A stretch of 63,325 nt of DNA, the filler included, from Globobulimina sp. (taxonomy: Eukaryota), in the NCBI GenBank assembly GCA_003354225.1. It is 26 parts of 26 records of this genome, joined end to end, with 100 filler letters (N's around TTAATTAATTAA, not from the genome) between each part and the next. Parts side by side here need not be neighbours in the genome. Positions count along the whole stretch, not along the records: positions 7,325 to 9,665 come from PIVH01007281.1; 25 more parts are not named here. One strand, 5' to 3'. Shown here one piece after another: positions 5,448 through 53,899 of the stretch. The stretch's first letter is position 1; each line of letters begins with the position of its first letter. The notes below the pieces were generated by a model. The model searched no databases. It was not told the origin of the DNA and saw only the letters and a program-made list of their open reading frames with translations. The position numbers were made by a program, and so were the translations under genes.

Positions 5448-6548
5448 ATGGCAGGCTCTTCAGATCGTGCAGCCTTAATAGCAAATGGAATATTTTCCAT
5501 TGGACTTTTGGTGCTCGCAATAATAGTGAGCATTTATCATTTAATAGCAACGTTCAGATCAACCAAAAACTTATGTAATAGACAGTTTTTCCACAAACAT
5601 CCATCGTTATTGTTGTCATATGTATTGGTGTTTGTAGCTTGTATCAGTGGCGTTAGTTTGACAATGGACAGTGTGATTGTGTCTGCGTTGTGTTCGTCAG
5701 CGCAATATTACGGGCCATCGCTCTATTCCATCTTCAAGACCATTGTCTATTTAATATTGGGATGCCGCATTTATATCTCGTTTAAAGACTCAATGTATGC
5801 GTACAACACCAAATGGTTGACGGTGTGGTTGATCTTATTGACGGTGTGGACCTTTTTTAATGTGATTGCGGGCAATTTGACCGTGGTCTCCTCGGTCGAA
5901 GAGGAAGAGGGTACCACCAAATGCTTGGTGACGCCCTCCATTTTGTACATCATATCGCAAGCTTTATTAGATGTCATCTCCGGCGTCGTCAATTGTGTCT
6001 TGTTCGTGCGGCCCATCTGCAAATTATACAAATTGGCGGGCGACAATGTGAAAATTAAGGGAATCGCCTATAAACAATGTATATTGTCGCTAATTGCCAT
6101 CATATCTTCGATATTTGCAATGGTTGGCATTGGTGCCGCGCCTGACTTTGTTCCTGTTTTTGTTGCATCCGATATGCTAATCTCTACGCTCTGCGTCGTG
6201 TTGATGTATAAATGGAATGCTTTCATAGCGCAGGCCGTATTTTGTTGTTGTATGCCGAAACCGCAACATATTCGAATGAATGAGAATGAGTTAGTCGTCA
6301 CTGTGCCATCCAAAACTGGCAATTCTGGCGACTCCAATACCCAAAAAAAGCAAATCAAACATATTAAACATGCGATTGGCGCATCGACCACCGTCAAATC
6401 CAAGACACAATCTCTCGCACAGCCTTCCATAAATAATTCTGATGAGACCAGAGAGAGGGACGCCGAGTTCGAGCCTACGGTGACTATGACGCAGACGCAT
6501 ACTGTTACCACTATGCAAGTGGCTGACTCTCAGGAACAAAATATTTAA
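5448..6548 (+). CDS. Seven-transmembrane (GPCR-like) membrane protein
   Basis: About 7 hydrophobic helices, then a CCC palmitoylation-like motif and a polar tail. Confidence 0.7.
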   Translation: MAGSSDRAALIANGIFSIGLLVLAIIVSIYHLIATFRSTKNLCNRQFFHKHPSLLLSYVLVFVACISGVSLTMDSVIVSALCSSAQYYGPSLYSIFKTIVYLILGCRIYISFKDSMYAYNTKWLTVWLILLTVWTFFNVIAGNLTVVSSVEEEEGTTKCLVTPSILYIISQALLDVISGVVNCVLFVRPICKLYKLAGDNVKIKGIAYKQCILSLIAIISSIFAMVGIGAAPDFVPVFVASDMLISTLCVVLMYKWNAFIAQAVFCCCMPKPQHIRMNENELVVTVPSKTGNSGDSNTQKKQIKHIKHAIGASTTVKSKTQSLAQPSINNSDETRERDAEFEPTVTMTQTHTVTTMQVADSQEQNI

Positions 6549-7324
6549 TTTATATATTCACAATTTCAAATTGTTAATGATTCTGCATGCCACGTTTTTG
6601 TTGTTATTTAATTTTTTTGTGTGAACTGTGAAGTAAATTTGTAAATGCAGCCTCCATTCTGAACCCCTGCGGGATGTCCGAATATTTTGTGTGATTTTAT
6701 CCACTTTTGTTTCTGATTTTTTTCTATCCATTTAATTTATTCATAATAACTAATACCAATAGTACCAGTAATACAATATTCAATCTTTAAAACACAAATC
6801 AAAACATTATACATATATTTACTGAAACTACAGTTACATTCAACTGGCACAAATCGTGATTTTTTGTTGTACTATTTCGAGTATGAAGAAGGAGCTGCAA
6901 AATATGGATCTCTGCTCGAAGTAGTCACATTATTGATTTCTTAAGTTTTGAAGTTACTGCTTTCACATTGCGATCAACATATTCAAAGTTTAGATATGGA
7001 AATATTATACCTCATAAGTTTATCAATGATATAAAGAAGCACCATTTAGGGATTGTTCTTATATTGCGCAATATAAATTTGGACCTAGGTATATGATTTT
7101 TGCAATTATTGCAATTTAGACCTGAGTTGTGGGCTTTTAACGCAAGCTTATTTAGCACAACAATATGGATCACAGACAGCAGATAAACACAACAAAAAAA
7201 GTCTCGAGTTATTGCAATTTATTGNNNNNNNNNNNNNNNNNNNNNNNNNNNNNNNNNNNNNNNNNNNNTTAATTAATTAANNNNNNNNNNNNNNNNNNNN
7301 NNNNNNNNNNNNNNNNNNNNNNNN

Positions 7325-7462
7325 TACCTTCCCGAATAAAAGAACATATTTCAAATATCTATAAAACCATACATGAAATGATGTATAAATGATTGTACCG
7401 TCATTATCTATACTTTTTATATGATAGTGTGTGCCGTCATTATAACACTCTATGTGCTTCAC
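7325..7462 (-). CDS. Phage hypothetical protein (3' partial)
   Basis: GTG start preceded by GGGGGAGAGA; open to the contig end. Confidence 0.6.
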
Positions 7463-7487
7463 TCTCTCCCCCTTGTGCTTTTAATAG

Positions 7488-7624
7488 TGCCCGGTAGTGG
7501 AATGGGTGCCTCCACACTAGTTGATAGGCCTCCAATCTCGAATCGAACGAATTGAATACCCCCATCCAGGGGAACCCTTGCGGTCAACTCCGCTATGTGG
7601 AGGCACCCATTCCACTACCGGGCA
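7488..7624 (-). ncRNA. Candidate structured RNA or hairpin element closed by a perfect 29-bp stem
   Basis: 7488-7516 and 7596-7624 are exact reverse complements; the interior has AGTTGA/TCAACT pairing, a CC-GCAA-GG tetraloop, CCCC-TGGAT-GGGG, and a stem capped by TTCGATT; the element fills the intergenic space. Confidence 0.6.
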
Positions 7625-7630
7625 TTGAGT

Positions 7631-7822
7631 TTATTGTTCTTTCTTGCTTTCGGATTTTTTGTTTAATTCATTCCGCCATTTTAATATTTTATCTCTAACT
7701 ATAGCTACTTCTTTCCTATCAAATATCTCGCTATCATTTGGGATCACATTATCAATAGCATTAAAAGCAATTTCACAATAAACGTAATTTTCAAATTCTA
7801 TTCTATCCTTGTTTTTCATCAT
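7631..7822 (-). CDS. Phage hypothetical protein
   Basis: GGAGG ribosome-binding site just upstream of the ATG; co-oriented with neighbours. Confidence 0.7.
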   Translation of the reverse strand: MMKNKDRIEFENYVYCEIAFNAIDNVIPNDSEIFDRKEVAIVRDKILKWRNELNKKSESKKEQ

Positions 7823-7829
7823 TCCTCCA

Positions 7830-7857
7830 ATGCCTCATAAACTGCCTTATGTCAACG
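7830..7857 (+). other. dif-like XerC/XerD recombination site A
   Basis: ATGCCTCATAA-ACTGCC-TTATGTCAACG; 11-6-11 layout like E. coli dif GGTGCGCATAA-TGTATA-TTATGTTAAAT. Confidence 0.65.
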
Positions 7858-8472
7858 GCCTGTTTTCTCAAATATTAGGAAATAACTATGATAAATTCTT
7901 GCGTGCTTTTGGATTTGTACCACTGTCACCGATGCCTTTACCGGCATGCGATTTTTTGCAATTAGAATAAACATGTCTTTCAAGCGGAACCCAGCTTCTT
8001 TTGACCATTCTATTACACTATTGTGTGTGCAATGCATCTTGTGATTGTGTATAATATCTTGACACTTGAAAATCATGACCCCTTTTTTGACTAACACTCT
8101 TTTCGATTCTAGGATTGTTTTTTTATAATGGTCTTCTAATTCGTCATATCTCCAATATCCTGAAAATCTTTTTCCCATGATGGAATTATGATCTCTTTTG
8201 TTTTTTATATAAGTTAAAAAAGGCGGGTCAAAGATAATATTATTTAGACTATTATCTTTTATTGGCAATTCTCTGGAATCCGCTTTTATAACATGATCAA
8301 ATAAAGGATCCAGGTCCAGGCATATAGATGGCCTTTCTATATTTTTATAAAAAGATCCATTTCCATATGTAATATCACAGTGGAAATTATCATTACAATG
8401 GAGACTCTTTATATTGTTTAATATTTCTGATTGGTCGTAGTTTATACTTTTTATCACTTTATTATCCCTCAT
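7852..8472 (-). CDS. Phage orphan amino-(N6A/N4C) DNA methyltransferase
   Basis: SAM-binding motif DITYGNGSF followed by catalytic IFDPPF; LVKKGVMIFK segment. Confidence 0.85.
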   Translation of the reverse strand: MRDNKVIKSINYDQSEILNNIKSLHCNDNFHCDITYGNGSFYKNIERPSICLDLDPLFDHVIKADSRELPIKDNSLNNIIFDPPFLTYIKNKRDHNSIMGKRFSGYWRYDELEDHYKKTILESKRVLVKKGVMIFKCQDIIHNHKMHCTHNSVIEWSKEAGFRLKDMFILIAKNRMPVKASVTVVQIQKHARIYHSYFLIFEKTGR

Positions 8473-8499
8473 TTTGACATAACTATTTTTATGTCCACG
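8472..8499 (-). other. dif-like site B, inverted relative to site A
   Basis: Minus strand reads CGTGGACATAA-AAATAG-TTATGTCAAAA; its last base is the A of the methyltransferase ATG. Confidence 0.65.
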
Positions 8500-8577
8500 T
8501 TAATCTTTTAATATCCATGCCCAAAATGCAAAACAAGCCAATATTATAATTACACTAAGAATTTTATCAAGTATCAT
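8500..8577 (-). CDS. Small single-TM phage protein (25 aa, MILDKILSVIIILACFAFWAWILKD)
   Basis: GAGGTG ribosome-binding site; the stop codon abuts site B; not in the ORF track. Confidence 0.5.
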   Translation of the reverse strand: MILDKILSVIIILACFAFWAWILKD

Positions 8578-8621
8578 TGCTCTCTCACCTCATTCGTTAT
8601 TAGTTATCATTTCTGTTCCCC

Positions 8622-8649
8622 ATGAGACATAATTAGTCTATTAGACAGG
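8622..8649 (+). other. Degenerate dif-like site C (left arm and spacer only)
   Basis: ATGAGACATAA-TTAGTC-TATTAGACAGG; same spacer as site D and a near-identical left arm. Confidence 0.45.
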
Positions 8650-8991
8650 TAATAACTCAGGATTTTCGTAAATATTCCCTATAATTATAGAATCATCTGC
8701 GTAAGCTCTATTCAAAAAATCTTTATGAATCATAAACCTGTAACTATTGAATTCATCAACATGTATAACAAATATTTTACCGTACCACTGCACAATATCA
8801 CCATCATATATCTCTACGCCATTTTTATCCTTGAGTCCTGTGTACTGCATTACTTTTTCGTGTAATAAATCATTTGCAGGACTAAACCATTGAAAACCAC
8901 AACGAATCCCTTTTCCCTCGGTAGTAATTGATATGTCGTATTCCATTTCGTTTCTTGTCCTGGAAAATGCTCTAAATTTAATCTCTCTCAT
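8641..8991 (-). CDS. yopX: YopX family phage protein
   Basis: MREIKFRA start, MQYTGLKDKNGVEIYDGDIV and IIGNIYENPELL signatures. Confidence 0.93.
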   Translation of the reverse strand: MREIKFRAFSRTRNEMEYDISITTEGKGIRCGFQWFSPANDLLHEKVMQYTGLKDKNGVEIYDGDIVQWYGKIFVIHVDEFNSYRFMIHKDFLNRAYADDSIIIGNIYENPELLPV

Positions 8992-9009
8992 TTTTCACCT
9001 CATCTCCCC

Positions 9010-9037
9010 ATACGACATAATTAGTCTTATGTCAATT
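9010..9037 (+). other. dif-like site D
   Basis: ATACGACATAA-TTAGTC-TTATGTCAATT; the right arm differs from the E. coli XerD arm TTATGTTAAAT at 2 positions. Confidence 0.7.
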
Positions 9038-9166
9038 ATTTATATCGATATAAAAGCATAAGAAAGAAAATCCAATAACATAGTAATTTATTGTTTTATA
9101 TACTTGAATATCTATTGTCGGAATTAAAAACCATTGTTCAAAATTCATGTATGCACTTATTCTCAT
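9032..9166 (-). CDS. Small phage protein (44 aa, MRISAYMNFEQWFLIPTID...)
   Basis: The ATG overlaps the stop of the upstream gene (ATGA); its TGA lies inside the right arm of site D; not in the ORF track. Confidence 0.65.
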   Translation of the reverse strand: MRISAYMNFEQWFLIPTIDIQVYKTINYYVIGFSFLCFYIDINN

Positions 9167-9432
9167 CTCTCCCCCTGCAATTCTTCTATGGCTTTTTCGT
9201 AAAGATTTTTTAGCTCTGTAATTTTTTCATTAAAAAACGGTGTCACAGCCGAATCCAATTCATTACTCCAGTTTGTGTAATACTCTCTTGCCTCTTCAAG
9301 TGCTGACTTTTTTATATAGCCTCTGTTTTTTAAAATTGTTTTCATTACTCTAATTGTATCTTGACGCAATACGTCAGTCAGGCAGCCCATCATTTCATTG
9401 AATAAGGATTCCTCTATTTCTTTCTTGCTCAT
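9163..9432 (-). CDS. Phage hypothetical protein
   Basis: GAGGT ribosome-binding site; ATGA overlaps at both ends. Confidence 0.75.
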   Translation of the reverse strand: MSKKEIEESLFNEMMGCLTDVLRQDTIRVMKTILKNRGYIKKSALEEAREYYTNWSNELDSAVTPFFNEKITELKNLYEKAIEELQGER

Positions 9433-9665
9433 TTCTCAACCTCTTCTAACGCCCTGCAAGGATTATATGTATATAAATTCCATCTTGTAAACGTCATCAT
9501 TTTCTTTGAGTTAATGTCAAAAAATTCTAGCGTATATCCCTTGAATATATGCATTTTTGTTTTTGTTCTCGGATCACATTTGTCAAATCTGTATTCTGGC
9601 ATTTTTTCTTTTATTCCTTCATGCGGTGTACAGACATGGATTTCAGGGCACTGTGCTGGAGCCTC
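9429..9665 (-). CDS. Phage hypothetical protein (5' partial)
   Basis: Open from the contig edge to a TGA that overlaps the next ATG (...NPCRALEEVEK*). Confidence 0.6.
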   Translation of the reverse strand, partial: EAPAQCPEIHVCTPHEGIKEKMPEYRFDKCDPRTKTKMHIFKGYTLEFFDINSKKMMTFTRWNLYTYNPCRALEEVEK

Positions 9666-12407: not shown

Positions 12408-14547
12408 TTATACATGCCCCGATTCTGATATTATTGAATTCGAAGCAACAGATAATTGTTTTGCTCCTTTCAATACAAACGTATTACCCTTACTATGCTT
12501 CTCCTGAGTTTCCGTTTCCATATTATAATTATTGCATTTACCACCATACATTTCTTCCATTTCATCATTTTCACTGTTTTTAATATTATGATCAACATAC
12601 AACTCATCTCCAGACTCGTCATCCCCGTCACCGTCACAATAAGTACAGGTGTCCTGTGCCTCTTTAATATTATATTTATTATCATACATTGCTTCAATTC
12701 CATATATATTTGGCTCATAATTGTGATCGTGACTTACTTCCCCGCTGTCATATGCATTGTTAATATCCACATTATCCATCCCTTCTGCATGGAAATAATT
12801 AGTCACCGCAACCTCTGGTACTTTGGGAGGTAATGTTAAGTCCTTCCTAATCACGCACATCTGTGTATTTTCAATGTGCGTTGTCATCCCCACAATGTTA
12901 TCATTTTTCTGTTTAAAATTGTCTAATTTGATGCGCTGCCATACACAACAAAGATATGATAAAAGTATGATCATCAAAATAATTAAACTTAATATAACAA
13001 CTGCAATCACAAAATATGTGCTGTTTGTACTTATTTTCTCCTGCGATGCGTGAGTAGGAGCTACAGAGCCAGTCACTTCACCACTTGTTGTTGTCGAGTG
13101 AATATTGGTGGGATATGCTGTAGTTAGGACTGACGATGGGGTGATTGTTGGGTAATTTGTTAACGTTGGAATTGATGGAATCAGTGTTGGATTATACGTT
13201 GGAATCGAGGATGGTGCGTTGGTTGGAAGTAATGTTGGATGATGTGTTGGATTGTAGGTTGGAGTTATTGTCGGATTGTTTGATGGTGTTATTGTTGGTT
13301 GTTGTGTTGGATTTTCTGATGGAATATTCAATGGATTGTTTGATGGACTTTGTGATGGGTTTTTGGATGGGCTTTTTGATGGACTTTGCGATGGGTTTTT
13401 GGATGGAGTTTGTGATGGACTTTTTGATGGATTATTTGATGGGTTTTGGGATGGATAGTTAGTAGGAGATGGCGTTGGATTATTATGGGTTGGAGTACGC
13501 GTTGGGTTACGCGTCGGATTATGCGTTGGATGGTGTGTCGGATTACGCGTTGGCTGTATATGCAGAAACACAGCACATTATATTGGACTTGTTGGTATAT
13601 ATTAACATACATGTTTTGTAGGCAGAGCCAGAGCGTTTGAATATTCCCATGTGTCATATATTACGCCAGTATCAGCTCCACCGAATACATAAATTATATG
13701 ATTAACAGCAATGACGCCCGGTGCTGATCTCCCACTCTTTATACGCACCGAACTCAATTGCATATTTCCCGCAGCATTCATAATTTGAATGCTTTTATCT
13801 GGATTCTCGCCAATTACCTTCCCGCCAATAAGATATACGATATCATCAACAACCACTGTTCTGTGATTATACCAATTTCCCTGCATTGTCTCCCAACTAT
13901 TGTCCCAGTTTGCAGTCGCAATTGAGGCCATATTTCCAATGTAAATGCGAGGTACTTTGGTGACAGCAATGCCATTAAAATCACTGCCACCGTATAAGTA
14001 AAGATAATTATTAATAATATTGCACGCTGACTGACGGACTGCAGTTTGCAAACTCCTGCCTTGCGTCCAACCGTAGCCCACAGTATCATATATCATGAAT
14101 TTAGTGCTCGGTGGACTATTTGTTTCAGATTCATCCATTCCTGAAACAAGGAAAATATATCGACCATCATTTGCTAGACATGGCCCAGCAATATCTCTGA
14201 AATATGAATTAAAAGTTATTGCATTGGTGATTTGACCAGAGGTTAAATGGAATACTTGTAATTTACTATTGAATGCAAAATATAAAAGATTACCAATTTG
14301 GGTGTAAGCTTGCCCATAAATATTCGGTGCTGTGCTGAATGATAAATAATTGTTGCTATCGTCAATAAATGTTTGTGTTTCATAATCATCGCCACCTCGC
14401 ACATATAGTTTTCCTTCTTCTCCAACTGTCTGGGTTCCCGGCAAGGTATTTAGTACCCCTGCAATATCTCCTGTAGCCCCTGCCGTGGTAACAATATCCA
14501 GTTCATTGAGTACAGTCCGCTTGCTTTCGCCTCCTGCTTCAAATGAT
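12408..14547 (-). CDS. Kelch-repeat surface protein with PT/PS-repeat stalk and single TM (5' partial); intron 13554-13610
   Basis: Kelch motifs LYLYGG, VYLIGG and IYVFGG; P(T/S)xx tetrapeptide repeats; TM segment FVIAVVILSLIIL; a phase-0 GT-AG intron joins the two ORFs. Confidence 0.85.
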
Positions 14548-18487: not shown

Positions 18488-19427
18488 TTACACACATCTG
18501 CGAACAATTGTCGGTCCAATGTCATCGTATTGATCCTTGGTTATCCACATGTCATTAAATGTTGACAATGAGGTCAATACACTGCCACCATACCATGCAG
18601 CATATTTTTGACAATTTGCTTTTACATTTATTGTCTCATTGCCTACCTTTAATTTGTTAATCTCTCTCTCCAATCTATGATCCATACCTTCAAATATTGA
18701 GCTACCACCAAACAAAACGATATTTCCAAGTAATTCTTTTTTGACATTAACATCAATATCCTGACTATCCTGACATTTTGCAATTGTCTGATAACATATT
18801 TCTTGAATTCCAACCTCTGCTGCTTTTTTTACATTTGATAGCAATGACGGTTTAAACAAACACTCCACACATTGCGATTTCTCATATTCATTTAAATATA
18901 TTTTTGTGCCATCCGGCAAAGCATAACTTACCGTTGGTTTATCATCATAGAATTTGTAACAAAGACTCATAATATCTCTCGAAATTAAATTCCTATTTGC
19001 ATTTAAATTAAAATTTGTATGATTCCGTAAATAACCGCTCATCATATAATCCTCAATATCGTTTTGTGACCATTCTGGGAATATTTTTGTATAAACCATC
19101 CCCTGTTTATGTTTAATATCATCGATAATATTCATATATTTATAGCCATGGGAAACATTAATATTTTTGTCCAAATTATTTATTAAATCATTAGTGTTTA
19201 ACGTTTGTTGTAAATAATTTGTAATATCATTACCTCCAACGTCCGTTGATGTGATTGCATTCGGTAAACACTTCCCATCCACATATGGCACACAATATGT
19301 TAGGTTGTAACCCAAATCCACGGAAATGCCAGTTTGCAATCCAGAGCCATAAAGATTTAATTGTGACTGTAACGAAACATAAAAGCAAAGAACATTAAAG
19401 GTTTCAAACATAATTTGAATCATTTTC
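18488..19427 (-). CDS. Divergent actin-family protein (5' partial)
   Basis: MIQIMFETFNV, YALPDG, NIVLFGGS, AWYGGSVLTSLSTF and GPTIVRR motifs. Confidence 0.92.
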
Positions 19428-53830: not shown

Positions 53831-53899
53831 TCCCTCGTAGCTCAATTGATAGAGCACTGTTTTAAACGTGTTATCCAGGTTCAAATCCTGGCGAGGGAA
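53831..53899 (+). tRNA. tRNA-like gene or pseudogene with a shortened, poorly paired anticodon arm
   Basis: Acceptor TCCCTCG/CGAGGGA, D arm GCTC-AATTGATA-GAGC, T arm CCAGG-TTCAAAT-CCTGG; only 19 nt between the D and T arms. Confidence 0.7.

Follow-up and report, generated by a model that had tools for sequence, protein, structure and literature searches.

Dif-like 28-bp sites at the gene borders of a phage-like contig: possible Xer-type cassette borders

Introduction

Dif-like sites are already known from plasmids, where they form dif modules, and from Xer-exploiting phages, which have a single one for attachment. On Acinetobacter plasmids the corresponding sites (xrs or pdif) are described as fusing replicons and not as excising modules, and the sequence of a site sets its pairing (10.1101/2024.04.09.588662, published as PMC11705084). 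Here, we describe four dif-like sites, named A to D, which lie between the small genes of a phage-like contig. This contig (PIVH01007281.1) occupies positions 7325-9665 of a 63,325-base stretch of DNA from Globobulimina sp. (assembly GCA_003354225.1), which is called the window below; positions given without a locus name count along the window. A sequence-only reading of this DNA had proposed that the sites partition phage genes into cassettes.

The contig resembles these plasmid systems in several respects. Both have several 28-bp XerC/XerD-type sites per replicon, in which one arm varies little, unlike the centre and the second arm, and in both the sites bracket genes in partly alternating orientation (in the window, four sites in 1.2 kb). 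The methyltransferase gene between B and A lies in an inverted bracket as in plasmid dif modules. Unlike the window, the xrs/pdif sites belong to Rep_3 plasmids with a known host and a tested Xer system, whereas the window has predicted sites on a phage-like contig of unassigned host, modules of a single small gene and left arms that poorly fit the XerC-side consensus. Plasmid carriage as in Acinetobacter was not found, the gene content being phage-like and PLSDB holding no match to the contig.

Integrative mobile elements exploiting Xer (IMEX), such as CTXphi, VGJphi and TLCphi, likewise have a phage-borne dif-like site, which is used by the host XerCD without a phage integrase (PMC6744903, PMC4246890). 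These elements carry one site each and the whole phage is integrated at the chromosomal dif, whereas three intact sites and a half site were found within 1.2 kb of the window. Some IMEX attachment sites have one poor arm, which may be compared with the hybrid proposed below for C and D.

Integrons and the window are alike in that promoterless cassettes of one gene follow one another, each closed by a recombination site into which the open reading frame (ORF) may extend. Their attC sites are folded, 57-141 nt long, and have the R' core GTTRRRY. The window differs in having 28-bp, weakly folding dyads of duplex type and neither IntI nor attI visible on the contig; site A, with GTTGACA, does not match GTTRRRY, and no recombinase is found on the contig. 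A further comparison is offered by the PeSL cassettes of T4-type phages, said to go back to Arbiol et al. 2010, in which short conserved intergenic units reportedly flank variable small genes in a plastic region as presumed exchange points. The PeSL unit is said to consist of an early promoter and a stem-loop and to act via homologous recombination; the sites of the window, by contrast, have no detectable promoter and a weak hairpin. Non-exhaustive term searches of the open-access literature retrieved no description of arrays of dif-like sites between accessory genes of tailed phages.

Results

The window is composed of 26 contigs of 2337-2342 bp, which are sorted by length and unrelated in content; each of the 25 joins between them reads N44-TTAATTAATTAA-N44. 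The only native context of the sites is therefore the contig at 7325-9665. Re-reading of the sequence recovered all four sites with the positions and letters that had been reported for them. Site A (ATGCCTCATAA-ACTGCC-TTATGTCAACG) occupies 7830..7857 on the plus strand, site B (CGTGGACATAA-AAATAG-TTATGTCAAAA) 8472..8499 on the minus strand and site D (ATACGACATAA-TTAGTC-TTATGTCAATT) 9010..9037 on the plus strand. These three are intact 28-bp sites of 11-6-11 build, in which CATAA-N6-TTATG is continued into the extended arm TTATGTCAA and exactly six bases separate the arms. Site C (8622..8649, plus strand) is a half site with one arm only, where ATGAGACATAA-TTAGTC is followed by a non-matching right arm.

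Seven plausible genes are present on the contig, all of them on the minus strand. Read along this strand, ORFs of 57, 89 and 44 amino acids (aa) are followed by D, the YopX gene, C, a 25-aa ORF, B, the methyltransferase gene, A, a 63-aa ORF, a hairpin and the start of the next ORF. The ORF map supports the earlier statement that every site lies at a gene boundary, since each fills the gap between two genes: D between the 44-aa ORF and YopX, B between the stop of the 25-aa ORF and the methyltransferase start, A between the methyltransferase and the 63-aa ORF. A site is present at all four non-overlapping junctions from the 44-aa to the 63-aa ORF and at neither of the two overlapping junctions. 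Two TGA stop codons fall inside the TTGACA of a right arm, that of the 44-aa ORF in D and that of the methyltransferase gene in A. B begins 3 bases past the TAA of the 25-aa ORF and its last base is at the methyltransferase ATG, and C sits after the YopX stop codon, which its right arm overlaps. Because gene ends reach into the arms, a cassette would consist of a ribosome-binding site, a gene and its stop codon, and little else.

The alternating orientation reported earlier was reproduced in part. By their best arm A and B are inverted relative to each other, as are B and D, and C and D are direct; relative to the genes, the orientation is not fixed. However, B is an almost perfect palindrome (TTGACATAA / TTATGTCCA), so that its opposite direction depends on one base plus the flanks. 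The arms are unequally conserved, as had been noted, but the left, supposedly variable arm keeps GACATAA in three of the four sites (B, C and D). The central hexamers of the intact sites all differ (ACTGCC in A, AAATAG in B, TTAGTC in D). B and A bracket the methyltransferase gene in inverted orientation, with the TTATGTCAA arms inward and different centres. C and D form a direct repeat, CCCCAT-NN-GACATAATTAGTC, 388 bp apart, with identical left arms and the same complete central hexamer, TTAGTC. This repeat encloses only YopX and its ribosome-binding site, and the right arm is complete in D and not in C. Bracketing of genes in the manner of dif modules can thus be seen for the methyltransferase (inverted sites) and for YopX (direct repeats); recombination at the brackets would follow from the interpretation discussed below.

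The clustering of the sites is not random. For CATAA-N6-TTATG, 0.30 occurrences are expected in the 63-kb window and three are observed, a number reached in none of 100 shuffles; all three copies fall in the 2341-bp contig. First-order Markov simulations of this contig (n = 4000) yielded a mean of 0.0115 sites and no case with two or more. When any 5-6-5 palindrome was allowed, three or more copies appeared in 3 of 1500 simulations.

In true dif sites the XerC-side arm is the more variable one. The XerD-side arm of the dif predicted for both chromosomes of Burkholderia mallei is given as TTATGTCAAAT (PMC2731167) and that predicted for Frankia alni as TTATGTCAAGT (PMC3025954), and TTATGTCAACT is listed for Sorangium cellulosum (PMC2650636) and Actinoplanes (PMC3364876). 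In these chromosomal dif sites the XerD-side arm is TTATGTCAA followed by A, C or T. The XerD-side type TTATGTnAAnT is matched by the window arms TTATGTCAACG, TTATGTCAAAA and TTATGTCAATT, and the inner ATAA/TTAT dyad with its 6-bp centre in A, B and D is also dif-like. The dif-like 11-6-11 build that had been proposed is borne out: the centre measures exactly 6 bp, and one arm coincides with the XerD-side arm of dif sites in the literature. On the left side, the overlap with the dif sites listed in PMC2731167 is limited to CATAA in A and GACATAA in B, C and D.

Related sites in other phages were found by motif searches of IMG/VR. The motif TCGCATAA-N6-TTATGTCAAC is present in 46 stretches (L165, L344-L388) of 33 to 65% G+C, mostly as a single site, and the unspecified positions near it are largely conserved (G-T/A-G before, T after). 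Compared with the Sorangium dif as given in PMC2650636, this site family agrees at 9/11 and 11/11 arm positions. Clusters of 3 to 6 dif-like copies were identified in five phage records (L341, L342, L350, L358 and L363), and most of these copies lie just upstream of small genes. Arrays of related dif-like sites are present in at least five phage records, none of which has the window's own variant.

L165, retrieved by the motif scan, is part of the complete 36.9-kb phage record G001/L341 and has three direct sites; the array lies at 6231-6500 of L341 and its best copy reads GTGTCGCATAA-N6-TTATGTCAACT. L342, which is 77% identical to L341, contains six sites in 1.4 kb (5901-7260), each directly 5' of the Shine-Dalgarno sequence and start codon of a gene of 46-123 aa, and the TAA of the left arm doubles as stop codon for some of the upstream genes. 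DNA homology between L341 and L342 stops upstream of the arrays; beyond this point, the sites alone align. L350 has about six and L358 about four sites, both arrays being on the minus strand, and L363 has two copies separated by 54 bases and a third one farther away. Between the array phages only the 28-bp sites align, and genes and flanks are unshared (blastn, tblastx). L342, L350 and L358 have the central hexamers TAGTAA and GGGATA in common, in an order that does not change, although the DNA to either side is unrelated, and the similarity around these sites ends at the outer edges of the 28 bp.

Twelve of the site-bearing records have a completeness of 90% or more; nine of them lack a PF00589 recombinase and three encode one. 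The small number of such recombinases makes a host enzyme the likelier one for this site family, if its members are recombination sites at all, and the single-site records may be tailed phages that lysogenise via the host XerCD. The recombinase of G001 was considered as the enzyme of its array and dismissed: it is an ordinary phage integrase whose gene adjoins a cI-like gene at a distance of 5 kb from the array, and shows no sign of a link to the array.

The IMG/VR arrays and the window have in common a 28-bp dif-like unit between small genes, gene content that is unrelated across phages, and the arm TTATGTCAAC. Unlike the window, the IMG/VR arrays point in one direction, their TTATGTCAACT arm adjoins the ribosome-binding site of the next gene, the left arm is canonical and some spacers are short, whereas the window is distinguished by a GACATAA-type left arm and mixed orientation. 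The array phages are not relatives of the contig. They show that such a class exists and, being analogues, bear on the function of the window's copies only by comparison.

Relatives of the contig itself are distant. The best homologues of the methyltransferase have 60-62% identity (64 IMG/VR loci, the best 80 of 133 metagenome loci and 3 GTDB loci), the closest GTDB carriers being unclassified metagenome-assembled genomes with 54-61% identity. For YopX the best value is 43% among the best 80 of 456 loci, and no relative of the 89-aa ORF was found. GenBank phages gave DNA matches of merely 61-67 bases and 57% protein identity to Pseudoalteromonas phage H103. The site array was seen in none of the 147 methyltransferase loci and in none of the 80 YopX loci, and the pattern of the C/D repeat has no match in IMG/VR. 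ACATAA-N6-TTATGTCAA occurs in at least 113 IMG/VR stretches, and among the matches listed only L165 has several sites.

A single textbook dif-like site was observed in 5 of the 144 methyltransferase loci from IMG/VR and metagenomes, about 0.4-1.6 kb from the gene (L047 at 1620, L048 at 842, L049 at 628, L060 at 8172 and L322 at 196). In three of these five the XerD-side arm is TTATGTTAAAT, the same as in the E. coli dif given in PMC3025954. Separately, the perfect palindrome TTGACATAA-N6-TTATGTCAA occupies one fixed position in L077, L093, L164, L389, L405, L408 and L426. It lies between a 215-aa gene and a gene of about 391 aa, over the start codon of the latter (e.g. 3157-3180 in L093). In L093, the sole annotated locus of this group, the site is within a row of structural genes. 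A microvirus attachment site had been considered for this palindrome family (L077, L093 and others) and was dropped, as L093 encodes a tail sheath.

The contig has 33% G+C and a phage-like gene content. The DNA methyltransferase of phage type (206 aa; 7852..8472, minus strand) matches phrog_24333 (2.6e-74) and PF01555 below the cut-off, and alignments to its homologues span residues 3-6 to 202-206. The YopX-family protein (116 aa; 8641..8991, minus strand) matches PF09643 (4.5e-21) and phrog_98 (1e-30). No family was assigned to the 63-aa ORF downstream of A (7631..7822), to the three overlapping ORFs (57, 89 and 44 aa) that precede D and have no site between them (9032..9602), or to the hydrophobic 25-aa ORF between C and B, a stop-free translation (8500..8577), all on the minus strand. 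In family searches, no DNA-binding family was found among the proteins of the contig, and Rfam gave no match anywhere on it, even at E values up to 1.

Two further structures were noticed on the contig. Just 3' of the 63-aa ORF lies a 137-nt hairpin (7488-7624), a 29-bp perfect inverted repeat around 79 structured bases, with a predicted folding energy as RNA of -89.6 kcal/mol (z -9.8; equalled by none of 200 shuffles). It is G+C-rich relative to the contig, has no match in Rfam or GenBank phages, and could be a small mobile element or a structured RNA. Between C and the 25-aa ORF, a six-codon mini-ORF (8590-8610, minus strand) has its own GGGGAA ribosome-binding site, and its TGA overlaps the GAGGTG ribosome-binding site of the 25-aa ORF. 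Elsewhere in the window, the pieces code for proteins of eukaryotic type, with actin at 18488-19423 and Kelch repeats at 13602-14444, and for PALP enzymes. At 53831-53899 Rfam reports a tRNA (49.1 bits); ARAGORN reports no tRNA in the window.

Discussion

We tentatively interpret the four sites, with a confidence that stays a little below an even chance, as Xer/dif-type tyrosine-recombinase core sites that bound single-gene cassettes in the accessory region of a phage or prophage. The cassettes would be the methyltransferase gene, the 25-aa ORF and YopX, and the arrangement suggests that genes are swapped at the sites by a site-specific recombinase. Each site would be made up of two 11-bp binding arms flanking a 6-bp crossover region; the recombinase would bind the arms and strands would be exchanged inside the central 6 bp. 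XerC/XerD of the host, or a single Xer-like protein, would be the likeliest candidate; failing these, the phage itself might supply a recombinase from the part of its genome that lies outside the contig. The unequal conservation of the arms and the presence of both orientations fit a DNA site for a recombinase, not a promoter or an RNA signal. Indirect support is lent by the five IMG/VR records whose arrays of more canonical dif-like sites lie between small genes without homology across phages.

The central hexamer could serve as a compatibility code, by analogy with the tested plasmid xrs sites, whose sequence sets their pairing. As the hexamers of A, B and D differ, these sites would not recombine with one another inside one genome. 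The partner would instead be a site with the same centre on a co-infecting relative or on a circular cassette, and exchange would transfer either a single cassette or all the DNA lying to one side of the site, with the genes left undamaged. Genes may in this way be acquired at the sites much as in an integron. For YopX a more specific course can be envisaged, in which a small circle with a one-armed site was integrated by exchange in the centre of a complete pre-existing site. The direct repeats C and D, their shared TTAGTC and the lost arm of C are the footprint expected of such an integration, and YopX may have entered at C/D by this route.

Several observations weigh against Xer-type cassette borders. 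The left arms ATGCCTCATAA, CGTGGACATAA and ATACGACATAA poorly fit the nnnTCGCATAA of most dif sites listed in PMC2731167. As the sequence-only reading had remarked, no recombinase is visible on the short contig, and family searches of the proteins encoded on its 2341 bp found none; neither a host nor a host dif is on record for it. The arm contains TTGACA, and in IMG/VR many TTGACATAA-N6-TTATG matches are ordinary promoters. In several copies of the IMG/VR arrays the spacer has merely 1 to 4 bases; such copies cannot be active core sites, which makes another function possible. No relative of the contig above 62% (methyltransferase) or 43% (YopX) identity was found in IMG/VR, metagenome contigs or GTDB. 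GACATAA-N6-TTATGTCAAH is present in 60 IMG/VR stretches, none of which has a second site, and the array variant of the window is so far unique. The one public run that was found to contain the contig has 0.88 of its words and is possibly the source sample; its Logan contigs contain no joint, inversion or deletion, at a depth of about 5 and with part of the contig barely covered or not at all, which makes this result uninformative.

The sites could also be operators, with the palindrome TGACATAA-N6-TTATGTCA bound by a dimeric phage regulator so that accessory genes are controlled singly. A helix-turn-helix dimer would be suited to a dyad whose halves lie 6 bp apart, the mismatches at the 16 specified palindrome positions are few (one each in B and D, three in A), each site lies just 5' of a ribosome-binding site, and a further 12 IMG/VR stretches have a single perfect TTGACATAA-N6-TTATGTCAA palindrome at a conserved place. 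We nevertheless consider operators unlikely: a promoter is detectable at none of the sites, four operators in one tight row of same-strand genes would be unusual, and the contig proteins include no DNA-binding family. Moreover, C is a half site, one arm of A agrees at 5/8 palindromic positions, and the arms are unequally conserved. If the units were instead promoters of sigma-70 type, TTGACA would be the -35 box and each accessory gene would have its own transcript. In A and D the coding strand does read TTGACA, about 30 to 45 bases ahead of the following start codon, and many of the 118 TTGACATAA-N6-TTATG matches listed from IMG/VR have TATACT or TATAAT exactly 17 bases past TTGACA. These many promoters make the motif alone ambiguous, but the window copies are without the -10 part. 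The contig hexamers 17 bases downstream are CATTGG (A), TATGGG (D) and AAATGA, a sigma-70 consensus scan of the coding strand finds no acceptable -10 box and calls no promoter at any of the four sites, the exact TTGACA of B is on the antisense strand, and C has no -35 box at all. Promoters are accordingly improbable.

Exchange at the gene borders might proceed without a site-specific enzyme, by ordinary homologous recombination over short boundary sequences similar to linker or PeSL sequences, the likeness to dif being incidental. The analogue arrays, in which genes differ and only the 28-bp units and a Shine-Dalgarno-like AGGAGG are shared, are in line with this, and spacers of 1 to 6 bases, as found there, would be tolerable for homologous exchange and not for a tyrosine recombinase. 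On the other hand, the contig sites have just 14 to 20 bases in common, which is short for such exchange, and neither the precise dif build with an XerD-type arm known from the published sites cited above nor the presence of exactly one copy in most phages of the analogue family would be explained; we judge this account quite unlikely. RNA hairpins that act as processing, stability or translation signals in a polycistronic transcript are the least credible of the specific alternatives, and very improbable. A 7-bp stem closing a 6-base loop is possible in B and in D (-6.3 and -7.3 kcal/mol; equalled by 2 and 3 of 200 shuffles, respectively), but A and C fold no better than shuffles (64/200 and 79/200), the stems are short and AU-rich, and the differences between arms are not compensatory. 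The remaining probability falls to chance or other causes.

A broader proposal extends the interpretation as Xer-type cassette borders to other phages. Some tailed phages might run their accessory regions as cassette arrays served by the host XerCD, for which a phage recombinase would be dispensable, with a six-base 'address' per site by which whole genes are swapped in register between co-infecting phages or gene circles. The window would then represent a diverged, more palindromic variant with YopX as a recent insert. We regard this proposal as possible though rather doubtful. The weight of the finding is bounded by a context of 2.3 kb, in which no direct sign of recombination was seen.

In phage mosaicism it is poorly explained how small accessory genes, such as methylases, anti-defence genes and genes of unknown function, move without breaking their neighbours. 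If the interpretation as Xer-type borders is true, phages would use the universal Xer machinery of their hosts as a gene-exchange device, a use so far known only for the integration of whole elements (IMEX) and for the modules of Acinetobacter plasmids. In that case the arrays would be to phages what dif modules are to plasmids, and would have a further parallel in integrons.

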